From Escherichia phage PhiR41_1: a stretch of DNA of 64,000 bases. The notes beneath the pieces were generated by a model. That model worked only from the letters and a program-made list of their open reading frames with translations. It did no database searches and was not told the DNA's origin. Each line of letters starts with the position of its first letter. Positions within the stretch are counted from its first letter, which is position 1. Positions 42,383 to 45,280 of the stretch are shown in pieces. The position numbers were made by a program, and so were the translations under genes. The stretch is from sequence record PV340561; one strand, 5' to 3'.

Positions 42383-43063
42383 ATGGACGTAAAAATCACG
42401 ATTTTGCAGGTTGATGTTGCCAACCTTCGCCCGAATACCTGGAACACCAATTCGGTTGGTGCGCAGAATTTCGAAAAACTGAAAGGTTCTATCGAAAAAT
42501 TGGGCTTTTTTAAGCCAATTTTGGCTCGTGAGCTTGAAGATGGATTTTTTGAAATCCTCGGCGGCGAACATCGCTGGCGTGCTGCTATTGAGCAAGGAAT
42601 TTCAACGGTTCCTGTGCTTTCTGTGGGAAAAATTAGCGATGTCGTGGCAAAACAGATGTCACTGGTGGACAACGAGCGATACGGTGAAGACGACCAAATC
42701 GCATTGCAACGCTTCATTGAAGAAATTCAGTCAGAACTTGACTATCAACTGTCTGAAATCGCCCCGTATGACGACGAAATCTCGATGGTTTTAGCAAAAG
42801 AGGCGGCAATTGACCTTGAAGCACTGGAGGCGTTGTCTCGTGGTAGTGATGAGCCTGTCGATACCGACAAACGAGAGAAAACCGAACGTGTCGGTGCGGA
42901 ACATCAGACCATGCGCTTCAAAGTAACCTTCGATGCGTCAGATCGCGTTGCAGAAACCATAAAAAACATCATCAAAGACCAGGCAATTAATACTGGCAAT
43001 GAAATGGAAAACGCTGGTGAGGCTCTGGTGTGGCTGGTCGACTACTACAAGGAGCGTATGTAA
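42383..43063 (+). CDS. ParB-like nuclease domain protein
   Basis: About 226 aa; ParB N-terminal-domain pattern (...FEILGGEHRWRAA); start alternatives GTG 42365 or ATG 42383. Confidence 0.6.
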   Translation: MDVKITILQVDVANLRPNTWNTNSVGAQNFEKLKGSIEKLGFFKPILARELEDGFFEILGGEHRWRAAIEQGISTVPVLSVGKISDVVAKQMSLVDNERYGEDDQIALQRFIEEIQSELDYQLSEIAPYDDEISMVLAKEAAIDLEALEALSRGSDEPVDTDKREKTERVGAEHQTMRFKVTFDASDRVAETIKNIIKDQAINTGNEMENAGEALVWLVDYYKERM

Positions 43064-43731
43064 TGACCAAAAAGTTTGAAATCGTATATCGCGACCCGGC
43101 AGATCTTATTCCCTATGAGATGAATGCCAAAAAGCATGATGAACAGCAGATCAGAGATCTGGCCGCAGCCATTAAAAAGCGCGGATTTGACCAGCCAATT
43201 ACGGTCGATAAGAACGACGTAATTATTACTGGCCACGGCCGCCGTGAGGCTGCAATTTTTGCTGGACTTGAGCGTGTACCGGTTATTGTTCGCGATGATC
43301 TCAGTGATGACGAGGTTCGTGCGAAGCGCCTTGAAGATAACCGACTTGCCAGCATTGATTACGATGCAATTAAGCTACAGAAAGAGCTTGAGTCGCTTGT
43401 TCTGGACGATATCGAGGTTTTCGGCTTTGAAGAGCGTGAGTTGAATGTTCTCGTTGGCAGTATGACAGAAGAAATGGACACCGACTCGCTAGTTATCGAT
43501 CTTGGCGAAGAAACTAAACGACAGAAGGATGAACACACCGAGATCAGTCGTGAAGTTGCAGCGGAAGAAGTACGTGTTGTCGACGTATTGGGCTTTAAAA
43601 CTCTCCCTGCTGGCTCTGCCATTGTTGTTGGTGATTTGCTTGCCCATATGGAAGAAATGACGGGAGAAAGCGGGGTAGACGCATTTGTGGCATATGCGGA
43701 GAAGATCTCTTCCGGGGAGATGGCTGCATGA
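43063..43731 (+). CDS. ParB-like nuclease domain protein (second copy)
   Basis: 222 aa; ...IITGHGRREAA motif; TAATG coupling to the upstream gene. Confidence 0.6.
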   Translation: MTKKFEIVYRDPADLIPYEMNAKKHDEQQIRDLAAAIKKRGFDQPITVDKNDVIITGHGRREAAIFAGLERVPVIVRDDLSDDEVRAKRLEDNRLASIDYDAIKLQKELESLVLDDIEVFGFEERELNVLVGSMTEEMDTDSLVIDLGEETKRQKDEHTEISREVAAEEVRVVDVLGFKTLPAGSAIVVGDLLAHMEEMTGESGVDAFVAYAEKISSGEMAA

Positions 43732-44393
43732 GCAAATACAACATCAACGTATCGTTTCAGACACGCGTAAATAAAACCACGCGCACGTTGGAAATCGCTG
43801 AGTCGTTCGGGCTTGGCCTGGACGAAAAAGAGTGGACGCTTTACGACAATCTGGAGCTGGAAGTGAAGCAGGGCGATGTGGTGTACATCACCGGCCAATC
43901 CGGTTCCGGCAAATCCGTTGTGCTGCGCGAGTTGCAACGACAGATGAAGGATGAAGGGCTGTCTGTAGCCTCCATCGATGATTTTACCTTCGATAATGAG
44001 GTTAACGTCATCGATCAGTTGGGCAAAACGACCAGCGATGCGCTTGGGTTGTTATCTATGGCTGGTCTGAACGATGCATATCTGTTTGTTCGCAAGCCTT
44101 CTGAAATGTCAGACGGCCAGAAATATCGTCTCAAGATTGCCAAACTGATTGAGTCAGGCGCTAAAGTGTGGGCTGCTGACGAGTTCGGTGCTGTTCTAGA
44201 CCGTGTAACCGCTCAGGTTGTGGCATCTAACCTCCAGCGTGCCGCTCGAAAGGTTGGTGCGACGGTAATGGTGGCGACGACTCACGAAGACCTGAAGAAC
44301 GCGCTGCGCCCGGATATGCAGATCATCAAGCACTACAAAGAACGCGTGAAGGTGGAATATCACAATGGTAGTCATGATGAGGTCCATTTATGA
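43728..44393 (+). CDS. ABC-type ATPase (small, stand-alone)
   Basis: 221 aa; Walker A GQSGSGKS, signature-like SDGQKYRL, Walker B VWAADEFGAVLD, H-loop ATTHE; ATGA coupling. Confidence 0.65.
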   Translation: MSKYNINVSFQTRVNKTTRTLEIAESFGLGLDEKEWTLYDNLELEVKQGDVVYITGQSGSGKSVVLRELQRQMKDEGLSVASIDDFTFDNEVNVIDQLGKTTSDALGLLSMAGLNDAYLFVRKPSEMSDGQKYRLKIAKLIESGAKVWAADEFGAVLDRVTAQVVASNLQRAARKVGATVMVATTHEDLKNALRPDMQIIKHYKERVKVEYHNGSHDEVHL

Positions 44394-45280
44394 CGGACAT
44401 CATCATTAAACGCTACCGCCCTGAAGAGTTTCCGCGTCATCTGGACTTTCTGGAGCGAATGACTGTTACAAAGGGAACTGTAGAGGACTGGCACGCTCTT
44501 AAGTCGCTTCACTACAAAACAGACGGCAAACCTTTCGCGCCAACTTACTATCGCTGCGAACTTGATGATCGTCTGGTGGGCGTCGTGGTTATGGCTTACC
44601 CGAAACTACTGTTGGCACCTCGCCACCGCATGTTTCCTAAGTTGAAACCAACCACTAATACCACCGTGGCTAACCAGTACTGGGGTCGGTACGTGAATAA
44701 CAACTTTGCGGTGATCAGTCGCTCAGTTGTGGATACTCAGTATCGTGGCGTAGGCGTCTCTTATCGAATGATTAACCTGGTTAGCAGGATGCATGACCGG
44801 CCAATCATTGAGATCCAGTCCTCGATGAGCAAATACAATCCCTTCGCCATGAAAGCAGGGTTTAAGTTCATCCGCCCTGAGCGACCGAAGAGCTATGAAA
44901 GTGCACTGCGTGTATTCCAGCGCCATTTCCGTTCCGACACGGGTGATAACGAGGCGATCGTCAAAGAGTTGTTCGCAATGAGCGAGTCTCGTCGTCGCCG
45001 TGCACTGCGTGATCTGGTGGCGGACTACCACAAGAACAGTTCCCTGGCAAAAGCTGGGCGGAATCGTGGCACGACGATTCAGGACATTGCCGACAGTCTG
45101 GTGGACGAGGCCAGCATTGTGAAGCTGCTCAAGGACATTCACAACCTGAGCTTTACGTCTCCGTTGTATGGTGTGTACCGAAACCCTGACTTTGGTCGTC
45201 GACTGCCTGACACGCTGCCACTGCTGGCATTCGACAAACAACCTTTGGATAAACCGTTAGAAATTGCTTTACCGGCATAA
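44390..45280 (+). CDS. hypothetical protein with GNAT-like N-terminal domain
   Basis: 296 aa; YRGVGVSYRMI resembles GNAT motif A, NPFAMKAGFKFI motif B-like; ATGA coupling. Confidence 0.4.
   Translation: MTDIIIKRYRPEEFPRHLDFLERMTVTKGTVEDWHALKSLHYKTDGKPFAPTYYRCELDDRLVGVVVMAYPKLLLAPRHRMFPKLKPTTNTTVANQYWGRYVNNNFAVISRSVVDTQYRGVGVSYRMINLVSRMHDRPIIEIQSSMSKYNPFAMKAGFKFIRPERPKSYESALRVFQRHFRSDTGDNEAIVKELFAMSESRRRRALRDLVADYHKNSSLAKAGRNRGTTIQDIADSLVDEASIVKLLKDIHNLSFTSPLYGVYRNPDFGRRLPDTLPLLAFDKQPLDKPLEIALPA

Follow-up and report, generated by a model that had tools for sequence, protein, structure and literature searches.

COG2401, also named 'MK0520' and described as an 'ABC-type ATPase fused to a predicted acetyltransferase domain', is an annotation category, and we know of no experimentally established function for it; the name is already used by JGI and in the record of phage Cyrano. 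TmcA couples an ATPase module to a GNAT domain. TmcA acetylates cytosine N4 of tRNA with acetyl-CoA, and the phage Mu protein Mom, which has a GNAT fold and an HTH-like insertion (residues ~175–209) essential for activity, modifies DNA adenine in a glycyl-tRNA-dependent manner, late in infection (PMC13219725). Clade E phage thymine dioxygenases (5mYOX) require a ParB-like protein in trans, and the commonest neighbouring genes include those for ParB and terminase (bioRxiv 10.1101/2025.08.14.668559). In the literature searched, we found no functional study of COG2401, of ABC-ATPase/acetyltransferase proteins in phage, or of ParB together with GNAT and ABC proteins, and no report of modified DNA in SSU5-like phages. 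A viral, terminase-linked context like the one described below was likewise not found there, though the ABC-ATPase classification of Krishnan et al. (2020; NAR 48:10045) may cover the clade.

The window, that is, the whole 64-kb stretch of DNA analysed here, is an SSU5-like phage-plasmid with 98.9% identity to phage Cyrano. Five of its genes appear to form one so far uncharacterised machine, which adjoins the packaging genes of bacterial and archaeal tailed viruses. Contrary to its annotations, it is not a ParABS module for partition, and it is not an ABC transporter either. The features of the region are as follows.

42383–43063, + strand: ParB1, 226 aa
43063–43731, + strand: ParB2, 222 aa
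43728–44393, + strand: ABC NBD gene (gene 3), 221 aa
44390–45280, + strand: GNAT gene (gene 4), 296 aa
45290–45556, + strand: wHTH gene (fifth gene), 88 aa, winged-helix-like, pI 10.3
45559–45659: nested AT-rich palindrome of ~100 bp between the operon and the small terminase gene
45754–46386, + strand: small terminase gene (TerS), phrog_867, TerS (CYRAN_1) in the Cyrano annotation
46386–47642, + strand: large terminase gene (TerL), Terminase_6N E 3.1e-09, TerL (CYRAN_2) in the Cyrano annotation

The four open reading frames of the initial annotation were recovered on the + strand with exactly the same coordinates, and the linkage by overlapping stop and start codons that it had described was read directly at all three junctions: TAATG with a 1-nt overlap between ParB1 and ParB2 (GTATGTA/ATGACC), ATGA between ParB2 and the ABC gene (GCTGC/ATGAGC), and ATGA between the ABC and GNAT genes (CATTT/ATGACG). 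The same source had proposed two paralogous ParB-type proteins and a minimal ABC ATPase, and both proposals held: Pfam ParB_N scored above the gathering score in both ParBs, as did ABC_tran (PF00005) in gene 3 (E 5.7e-13, 50.1 bits against a cutoff of 25), which also carries Walker A (GQSGSGKS), signature (SDGQ), Walker B (DE), and H-loop His motifs. It had overlooked the fifth gene, TerL as the strongest conserved partner, and the correspondence of genes 3 and 4 to the halves of a COG2401/MK0520-type protein.

By sequence comparison, genes 3 and 4 are the two halves of an ABC–GNAT enzyme that archaeal and Planctomycetota viruses encode as one chain. The fused proteins of the COG2401/MK0520 type in these viruses are ~450–500 aa long, with the ABC part first and the GNAT part second. 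Gene 3 matched the N-terminal halves of fused relatives mostly with E 1e-40 to 1e-65 (phmmer), most full-length fusions matched the GNAT profile with E ~1e-15 to 1e-27, their C-terminal halves corresponding to gene 4, and the invariant residues of the split and fused forms, including the catalytic ABC motifs and GNAT motif A, correspond one to one. The fused family shows no variation in the Walker A, signature, Walker B, and D-loop residues and almost none in the H-loop His; gene 3 also has the family-specific N-terminal motif AExFGLG. The solved chains nearest to gene 3 are transporter NBDs, and ABC identity across divergent phages is 52%–62%, about as conserved as TerL. The divergent relatives came from an exhaustive profile search and scans seeded with the fused family. 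The enzyme family comprises ~900 clusters (50% identity) in tailed viruses of hosts as far apart as E. coli and Bathyarchaeia. Four relatives of 666–699 aa contain a ParB-like part, a Zn-ribbon, ABC, and GNAT in one chain, and their N-termini matched the window ParB family by hhalign (97.5%, E 5e-12); in IMG/VR, no ParB–ABC–GNAT triple fusions were found, only ABC–GNAT proteins. The ABC domain of one relative is interrupted by an intein. The Cyrano 'ABC transporter' CYRAN_75 (window 9972–10616), considered as a second ABC paralogue, was rejected as an AAA_28 kinase-like P-loop protein with no relation to gene 3.

Gene 4 (pI 9.8) is predicted to be an acyltransferase of the GNAT type, with the GNAT fold at ~residues 20–165 followed by a conserved C-terminal helical/beta domain. 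The GNAT-like character ascribed to it earlier stood with respect to the alpha/beta fold, for which structure prediction was needed as confirmation, and did not stand with respect to Pfam, where Acetyltransf_10 (E 0.036, 14.5 bits) missed the curated cutoff of 23.6. Among distant relatives, P0324 came near this cutoff (23.3 bits) and P0359 passed that of Acetyltransf_1 (25.6 bits against 20.7). Motif A (consensus Q/R-x-x-G-x-G/A), the binding motif for the CoA pyrophosphate, reads R119-G-V-G122-V-S, with Ser instead of Gly/Ala at the final position, and R119 and G122 are invariant among 45 split and 39 fused sequences.

ParB1 and ParB2, both with pI 4.5, aligned with 33% identity across the N-terminal 116 aa in BLASTP (E 6e-10) and are alignable end to end, ParB2 being a full-length paralogue of ParB1 (alignment A3 spans the whole protein). 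ParB1 has a ParB/Srx fold, in which an N-terminal ParB_N domain (E 3.2e-13; phrog_723 E 1.3e-78) with GEHRWRA and DNER motifs is followed by an acidic linker and a C-terminal module of ~55 aa conserved among 18 orthologues. It matched Spo0J 1vz0 with E 2.7e-09, and its AF2 model, built on a shallow alignment, was confident only for residues 4–97, with pLDDT <50 past residue 97. A profile of the C-terminal module gave no significant match in PDB and Pfam; by eye, we would guess at a ribbon–helix–helix, though the acidity of the module speaks against simple DNA binding. ParB2 (ParB_N E 1.3e-08; phrog_930 E 1e-112) matched the N-terminal part of phrog_498 'DNA methyltransferase' (E 1.7e-31), aligning only with profile positions 31–179 of 633, and PADLOC MTase_II (E 2.9e-17). 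Pfam detected no methyltransferase domain in genes 1–5, and nickie gp158 and RHEph10 gp083 owe their 'DNA methyltransferase' labels solely to the ParB part. Motifs of the GxxRxxA-like and (E/D)NxR-like types of ParB_N are kept in the window ParBs, ParB_N is the only domain detected by Pfam and NCBIfam, and the ParB score was below the NCBIfam parB_part cutoff (43 against 58 bits). No HTH or other DNA-binding domain was detectable in either protein by Pfam, NCBIfam, profile searches, or AF2, the confidence of which is low past residue 97, and no repeated parS-like site was found in 42200–46500.

The gene at 45290–45556 belongs to the operon as its fifth gene. It begins 10 nt past the end of the GNAT gene and overlaps the GNAT stop codon in two relatives (L003 and L004). 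The encoded protein matched phrog_900 with E 7e-45 and, weakly, LexA_DNA_bind (0.086), Sta1 (0.003), and Lrs14 (0.006). The palindrome that follows has arms at 45582–45600 and 45618–45636 that are 95% complementary and a DNA fold of −28.4 kcal/mol (z −9.3). Comparable palindromes of unrelated sequence lie at the same place in L003 and L004, and the palindrome is a candidate cis element, whether a pac site, a regulatory site, or a terminator.

The order helicase, ParB, ParB, ABC, GNAT, wHTH, TerS, TerL, and portal was colinear in 22 of 22 divergent SSU5-like loci, with the place of wHTH resting on the 19 loci in which tblastn found the gene; it was missed in L166, L293, and L294, and phmmer does match the wHTH protein in L166. 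As this set is retained at 32%–65% protein identity, the arrangement is not due to chance. The operon also occurs in phages whose sequences were deposited as those of ordinary phages (for example, Pseudomonas phage nickie), and the module in archaeal viral contigs. Of 108 viral contigs, 48 have TerL immediately upstream of the fused ABC–GNAT gene and two have it downstream, giving adjacency in 50 of these 108 archaeal-type contigs, and the two genes share a 4-nt stop/start overlap in 14. Universal TerL adjacency was rejected, the remaining half or so of the archaeal-type contigs having the gene after tail/baseplate (YQBQ-like) genes. In archaeal genomes, TerL, portal, and capsid genes neighbour the fused gene. 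Planctomycetota loci place a ParB_N gene directly after ABC and GNAT, and in some of them TerL comes close behind. The large terminase is the conserved genomic partner of the ABC–GNAT enzyme. ParB-fold proteins are recurrent partners, as neighbouring genes or fused; however, a ParB gene was detected beside the archaeal-type fused gene in only one of the 108 contigs, so the machine does not always include ParB.

The operon is silent in the plasmid-prophage state. In RNA-seq of a Cyrano lysogen in LB, CYRAN_119–123 read 5.0–9.5, the ParB genes CYRAN_119/120 reading 5.0 and 9.5, the median background being 9.8 and the cutoff 49 (PMC9928086 supplement). TerS, TerL, and portal were at the same background level, and the divergent helicase next to the operon read 46 (PMC9928086 supplement). 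The ParB genes are thus at background while the element is kept as a plasmid, contrary to the plasmid-state expression that would mark partition genes.

The initial annotation had raised DNA modification, anti-defence, or DNA handling as conceivable roles. The data lean towards an enzyme that is directed at DNA or linked to packaging, and we propose the following scenario, to which we give about an even chance: the operon may encode a late-expressed enzyme complex of the virion-packaging module, an ATP-driven, ParB-assisted acyltransferase acting on phage DNA or DNA-bound proteins around the time of packaging. Upon lytic induction, the two acidic ParB/Srx paralogues would serve as nucleotide-dependent loading or regulatory subunits, much as ParB domains may do on phage DNA methyltransferases and ParB-like activators on thymine dioxygenases, and the wHTH protein would provide sequence recognition. 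Closure of the ABC dimer, powered by ATP, could bring the basic GNAT module onto phage DNA that has been replicated, and the GNAT domain would then transfer an acyl or aminoacyl group onto a base, or else onto lysines of DNA-bound proteins, shortly before or during packaging by the neighbouring terminase. An orientation towards DNA is suggested by the pI values of 9.8 (GNAT) and 10.3 (wHTH) and by the domain type of ParB2, which is that fused to phage DNA methyltransferases. The split enzyme, the ParB and terminase links, the core-like conservation, the silence in the lysogen, and the precedents of Mom, TmcA, and the thymine dioxygenases also speak for the scenario. DNA bases are a possible target, at somewhat less than even chances, and DNA-bound proteins a distinctly unlikely one. 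Several observations weigh against this scenario: the acidity of both ParBs, C-terminal modules included, and the lack of a detectable DNA-binding domain in them; the strict core-like conservation and TerL synteny, which would be uncommon in anti-restriction modification genes, as these are usually accessory; the rarity of ParB genes beside the archaeal-type fused gene; the generic nature of the resemblance to Mom; and the placement after tail/baseplate genes in about half of the archaeal-type contigs. As a broader and somewhat unlikely extension, ABC–GNAT might be an ancient terminase companion in bacterial and archaeal tailed viruses, with ParB partners in bacterial lineages, that leaves a novel (amino)acyl mark on viral DNA or strips or marks DNA-bound proteins during packaging. 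Were this so, viral genomes would be modified in a step coupled to packaging, by the first nucleic-acid acyltransferase driven by an ABC ATPase.

Several of the same observations could also be accommodated by a terminase accessory or packaging-initiation complex, in which the ParBs, as nucleases or clamps, and the ABC protein would help to recognise, bend, or cut concatemers at pac or clear DNA for the motor, and the GNAT protein would either be non-catalytic or have a regulatory role, such as the acetylation of TerS, TerL, or portal. ParB-nuclease-domain and HNH genes often adjoin terminase genes, and the fixed place directly upstream of TerS/TerL in all SSU5-like loci, the TerL-like conservation of ABC, the large palindrome conserved before TerS, and the adjacency and translational coupling to TerL in archaeal-type contigs all suit such a complex. 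We nevertheless consider it unlikely: a separate TerS-like gene (45754–46386, phrog_867) already holds the DNA-recognition role and position, most tailed phages package without such proteins, and the gene is away from TerL in half of the archaeal-type contigs. Moreover, GNAT motif A and about eight residues of the active-site region are invariant in E. coli phages and archaeal viruses alike, suggesting catalysis instead of a scaffold. The same fixed structural and packaging position across domains of life, with core-like conservation, is atypical for counter-defence, and an anti-defence or host-takeover enzyme not acting on phage DNA is very unlikely in our estimation. Its GNAT could acetylate host proteins, aminoacyl-tRNAs, nucleotides, or signalling molecules, with the ABC ATPase as its power source or gate and the ParB/Srx proteins as NTP-hydrolysing effectors. 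Nucleotide degradation has been proposed for ParB/Srx proteins of conflict systems (PMC10853773), and the ABC domain shows weak ABC-F similarity (NCBIfam E 7.9e-12; Lsa(A) E 6.9e-09), but the GNAT protein and the ParBs had no significant match to PADLOC or anti-defence families, and the basic GNAT and its wHTH partner indicate nucleic acid. Membership in a defence system was rejected, the PADLOC matches being merely generic P-loop or ParB-domain ones.

The databases read the locus as two ParB partition proteins for plasmid maintenance and an unrelated ABC transporter ATP-binding pair, in line with the 'ParB-like partition protein' and 'ABC transporter' annotations of SSU5, Cyrano, nickie, and RHEph10, the interpretation of twin ParB genes in related Acinetobacter phage-plasmids as partition genes (PMC7969092), and the match of ParB1 to the N-domains of Spo0J and Noc. 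This reading is largely refuted and extremely improbable. ParA does not adjoin the operon, the neighbours being a DEAD/ResIII helicase, an ABC NBD, and GNAT; the sole ParA-family gene in the window (26801–27901) encodes an Mrp/ApbC-type NTPase (PF10609 E 2e-102), lies 14 kb off, and is paired with metG. Furthermore, transcription is at background in the plasmid state, HTH was undetected in both ParBs, the module adjoins TerL in phage genomes and archaeal viral contigs, and some relatives fuse ParB to ABC–GNAT. Permease and substrate-binding genes are absent from the operon and from the conserved neighbourhood of the 22 relatives, and the NBD is fused to GNAT in relatives, which argues against a transporter. 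The doubt that the initial annotation had expressed about a partition module is upheld by the missing ParA, the silence of the Cyrano genes, and the occurrence in archaeal viral contigs.

The labels 'ParB partition protein', 'ABC transporter', and 'DNA methyltransferase' are attached to these genes in hundreds of Enterobacteriaceae phage-plasmids, including the clinically tracked SSU5/pHCM2/pKpn elements, and ParB matches serve as plasmid markers in phage-plasmid detection and typing. Because the evidence points to lytic-cycle genes, ParB-based calls can misclassify phages as plasmids. An uncharacterised enzyme family, one part of which is conserved like the terminase, occupies a late or packaging module. 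If it modifies DNA, it would add new chemistry and an ATP- and ParB-dependent mode of delivery to phage genome hypermodification, which would matter for phage therapy, for escape from restriction, and for artefacts in sequencing. Should it instead have a role in packaging, the terminase would gain a new cofactor.

Compared to known systems, the window ParBs have the ParB_N fold and motifs in common with the ParB/Spo0J/Noc CTPase clamps of ParABS; unlike these, they have an acidic pI, are not expressed above background in the plasmid state, and also occur in viruses that are not plasmids, and no adjoining ParA, HTH, or parS was found. For the Dnd and Dpd systems, PADLOC gave no DndB, DndD, or Dpd match, the sole Dnd-type match being DndF (E 0.0023) across the P-loop, and the partner genes are absent from the neighbourhood. 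TmcA/NAT10 is a conceptual analogue only, as a GNAT enzyme acetylating a nucleic-acid base (cytidine N4 in RNA); its ATPase is helicase-type, not ABC, and its substrate is tRNA or rRNA. Mom ranked eighth for gene 4 with ~11% identity, a generic GNAT fold similarity; a Mom-type protein is recognised by sequence homology to Mom and the HTH-like insertion, and such homology was not found. Mom, moreover, acts alone, without an ATPase or ParB, and the C-terminal domain of gene 4 is unrelated to it. The 5mYOX enzymes are Fe/2OG dioxygenases, whereas the operon encodes a predicted GNAT and an ABC ATPase. In the ParB_N–DNA methyltransferase fusions (phrog_498; PADLOC MTase_II PDLC03229), the ParB part of which is matched by the ParB2 N-domain, a ParB domain is joined to an enzyme domain, as in the triple-fusion relatives; by contrast, the catalytic partner here would be an ABC-powered predicted GNAT encoded in trans. 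Finally, genes 3 and 4 match COG2401/MK0520 over the full length and in the same order, but in place of a fusion, the window has two translationally coupled genes, accompanied by two ParB paralogues and a wHTH gene.

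The 2.9-kb operon region is 99.8% identical to that of Escherichia phage CMS-2020a, 98.9% to that of phage Cyrano (the phage-plasmid pLF82 from E. coli LF82, in which position 105144 is the equivalent of window position 42383), and 85.6% to that of Salmonella phage SSU5, and the window is thus an SSU5-like phage-plasmid. The operon and its neighbours are arranged as follows.

40741-42300 (-), UvsW-like DEAD/ResIII helicase, divergent from the operon and syntenic in 22/22 SSU5-like loci
42383-43063 (+), gene 1, ParB1
43063-43731 (+), gene 2, ParB2
43728-44393 (+), gene 3, ABC ATPase
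44390-45280 (+), gene 4, GNAT-like protein
45290-45556 (+), wHTH gene
45754-46386, TerS, small terminase
46386-47642, TerL, large terminase

The four ORFs with stop/start overlaps reported in the initial annotation are real. Its ParB-like calls for genes 1 and 2 (ParB_N) and its ABC-ATPase call for gene 3 (ABC_tran) scored above the Pfam gathering score, and the two ParB proteins are, as proposed, paralogous from end to end. The GNAT-like call for gene 4, for which the GNAT match stayed below the Pfam threshold (E = 0.036), was confirmed by a structure prediction. Gene 4 also has a conserved additional domain in its C-terminal 130 residues. The wHTH gene, encoding a basic, winged-helix-like protein of 88 aa, begins 10 nt past gene 4 and overlaps the GNAT stop codon in distant relatives; it is a member of the operon. 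ParB1 and ParB2 have a strongly acidic pI of 4.5; the GNAT (pI 9.8) and wHTH (pI 10.3) proteins, by contrast, are basic.

When the gene-4 family served as the profile in an exhaustive search, 896 clusters were returned at E values up to 0.001; besides SSU5-like orthologues and fragments, these included many proteins of approximately 450-500 aa with the gene-4-like part at the C-terminus. The N-terminal halves of these fusions matched the window ABC protein over its full length, mostly at E values of 1e-40 to 1e-65, and the unusual AExFGLG motif at its N-terminus is part of the match. Neither the split nor the fused forms vary in the ABC catalytic motifs, in GNAT motif A (R-x-x-G), or at residues H41, Y42, R111, E141, M146, and Y260 (window numbering); selection therefore acts on both the ABC and the GNAT activity. 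Genes 3 and 4 are thus one enzyme of the COG2401/'MK0520' type, an 'ABC-type ATPase fused to a predicted acetyltransferase domain', a name already in use by the JGI and Cyrano annotators. No functional study of proteins of this type was found in the literature searched, and we do not call the ABC-GNAT family itself new, because the 2020 ABC-ATPase classification may already mention the clade. In the window the two genes overlap directly (ATGA), whereas in relatives small ORFs, among them those for Phage_gp49_66, RyR-domain, and DUF2829 proteins, are recurrently inserted at the junction, with the order of the halves kept. Junction insertions lie at the following positions in relatives' loci.

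7977-8231, L002 (SSU5)
6961-7999, L003
5646-5981, L293
5893-6395, L294
~6650-8047, L159

Further domain combinations occurred among distant representatives of the family. P0325 (1260 aa) and P0297 (791 aa) carry a putative N-terminal fusion to a family B DNA polymerase, with recoded stop codons as the alternative, the ABC domain of P0285 (847 aa) is interrupted by a LAGLIDADG intein, and P0275 (665 aa) has a TFIIB repeat at its C-terminus. P0312, P0324, and P0359 (878-908 aa) share an N-terminal extension of 400-450 aa with a PD-(D/E)xK-like motif by eye; the extension opens with a second P-loop in P0312 and P0324, and P0312 shows a faint match to the Pox_A32 packaging ATPase (E = 0.017). In one isolate-genome provirus, an Amidoligase_2 gene (L134, 3645-4517; PF12224, E = 2.8e-49) lies directly 3' of the fused gene, and the structural neighbours of the predicted GNAT model include a 695-aa viral 'amidoligase' (BFVD A0A8S5SJK3). 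These amidoligase neighbours may hint at a chemistry that forms peptide or amide bonds.

The ParB proteins are linked to the enzyme beyond the SSU5-like phages. Four representatives of 666-699 aa consist of a ParB-like domain, a zinc ribbon, and then ABC-GNAT, and their N-termini matched the window ParB1/ParB2 family in profile-profile comparison (97.5% probability, E = 5e-12). In Planctomycetota genomes, a ParB_N gene (Pfam E values of 4.8e-09 to 3.7e-04) lies directly 3' of the ABC and GNAT genes, whether fused or split; in archaeal-type viral contigs, ParB was near the ABC-GNAT gene in 1 of 108. In bacterial lineages, ABC-GNAT and ParB are thus parts of one machine, with ParB as a recurrent, not universal, partner. 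The ParB2 N-domain is a type found as a fusion partner of phage DNA methyltransferases (phrog_498, E = 1.7e-31; PADLOC MTase_II, E = 2.9e-17), which explains the wrong 'DNA methyltransferase' labels in phages nickie and RHEph10.

Terminase is the conserved neighbour of ABC-GNAT. Twenty-two divergent SSU5-like loci, among them those of Pseudomonas phage nickie and Rhizobium phage RHEph10, keep the order helicase (-), ParB1, ParB2, ABC, GNAT, wHTH, TerS, TerL, and portal, interrupted by variable small ORFs, and identity across these loci is 52-62% for ABC, on par with TerL (55-65%). The fused gene adjoins TerL, portal, and capsid genes in genomes of Bathyarchaeia and Nitrososphaeria, and in some Planctomycetota loci TerL lies 0.1-2 kb downstream of the ABC/GNAT genes. 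In 48 of 108 IMG/VR contigs that encode the fused protein, its gene directly follows TerL, and in two it directly precedes TerL; in 14, the end of TerL and the start of ABC-GNAT overlap by 4 nt. Most contigs in which TerL is not adjacent have the fused gene after tail or baseplate (YQBQ-like) genes, which still places it last in the structural block. A substantial fraction of the archaeal-type contigs (L137, L140, L142, L146, L148, L152, L156, L157, and many of L214-L291) end inside the ABC-GNAT gene or no more than a few hundred bases beyond it; the gene may mark the end of a genome, the edge of a prophage, or a point where assemblies repeatedly break.

The wHTH-TerS intergenic region of the window (45557-45753) contains the following elements.

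45559-45659, nested AT-rich palindrome of ~100 bp (DNA fold -28.4 kcal/mol, z -9.3)
45672 and 45697, two 17-nt direct repeats, 3' of the palindrome
45714-45735, terminator-like hairpin

Palindromes of similar size and unrelated sequence occupy the same position in two distant relatives (L003, 9175-9289; L004, 9181-9322). In GenBank, SSU5 and Cyrano are each linearised at approximately window position 45618, 62 nt past the wHTH stop and at the edge of the palindrome's central loop. The region may serve as a pac site or in regulation, or may just be where the assemblies were broken.

A partition system, which the two ParB genes might suggest, was largely refuted. In RNA-seq data of the Cyrano lysogen (supplementary table of the LF82 study, PMC9928086; median prophage background 9.8, 'expressed' cutoff 49), the counterparts of the five operon genes, CYRAN_119-123, showed background values of 5.0, 9.5, 9.2, 8.0, and 7.8, and TerS, TerL, and portal 7.1, 8.4, and 9.8. 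A partition system must be made in the plasmid state, and the operon's expression resembles that of late genes. Furthermore, a ParA partner of ParB1/ParB2 is absent, no HTH was detectable in either protein by Pfam (the AF2 model of ParB1 is confident only at residues 4-97), and no parS-like repeat was found within 42200-46500. The initial view that this is not a standard partition module thus holds. The UvsW-like helicase was transcribed in the same lysogen (46 against the background of 9.8), whereas the operon was not, and the helicase's neighbour CYRAN_117 reached 114 (PMC9928086).

Elsewhere, the window carries a divergent pair resembling the host apbC(mrp)-metG locus.

26801-27901 (-), Mrp/ApbC-type ParA-family NTPase (PF10609, E = 2e-102), 'MinD' in the Cyrano annotation, with a lysogen expression of 92
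27930-30092 (+), full-length methionyl-tRNA synthetase with tRNA-binding domain (PF09334, E = 3e-165)

To our knowledge, it is unusual for a phage-plasmid to encode a complete aminoacyl-tRNA synthetase. The counterpart of CYRAN_75 (9972-10616, +), labelled 'ABC transporter ATP-binding protein' in Cyrano, does not belong to the ABC proteins; it matches AAA_28/kinase-like P-loop families, is unrelated to gene 3, and sits among nucleotide-metabolism genes (RNR, ThyX, DHFR, Pnkp).

The operon is real and more coherent than the initial annotation could see: a widely conserved viral enzyme system, uncharacterised and mislabelled in current annotation. ABC-GNAT is a late-module, terminase-linked, catalytically constrained enzyme with ParB-fold partners and a small basic DNA-binding-type protein. 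We propose the following scenario. ATP would drive the ABC domains to dimerise and so bring the basic GNAT module to phage DNA that has been replicated, or to chromatin; nucleotide-dependent loading or regulation may fall to the ParB/Srx paralogues, and the GNAT may move an acyl or aminoacyl group onto a base or DNA-bound proteins around packaging time. There is a moderate chance that the operon represents a new packaging-coupled modification chemistry. A terminase accessory role without modification, the main rival, explains the tight TerL coupling and core-like conservation at least as well, but fits the invariance of the acyl-CoA-binding motif less well.

The kinship of the proposed modification system lies with ParB-assisted DNA-directed enzymes and the COG2401 ABC-GNAT family. 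A clade of phage thymine dioxygenases needs ParB-like proteins in trans, and ParB and terminase genes abound in its neighbourhoods (bioRxiv 10.1101/2025.08.14.668559). Mom, a GNAT enzyme, uses glycyl-tRNA to modify adenine in DNA late in infection, and TmcA acetylates the cytosine N4 of tRNA from acetyl-CoA; the work on Mom cautions that GNAT substrates are not readable from structure (PMC13219725). The ParB-methyltransferase fusions of phages are a precedent for ParB joined to a DNA-directed enzyme.
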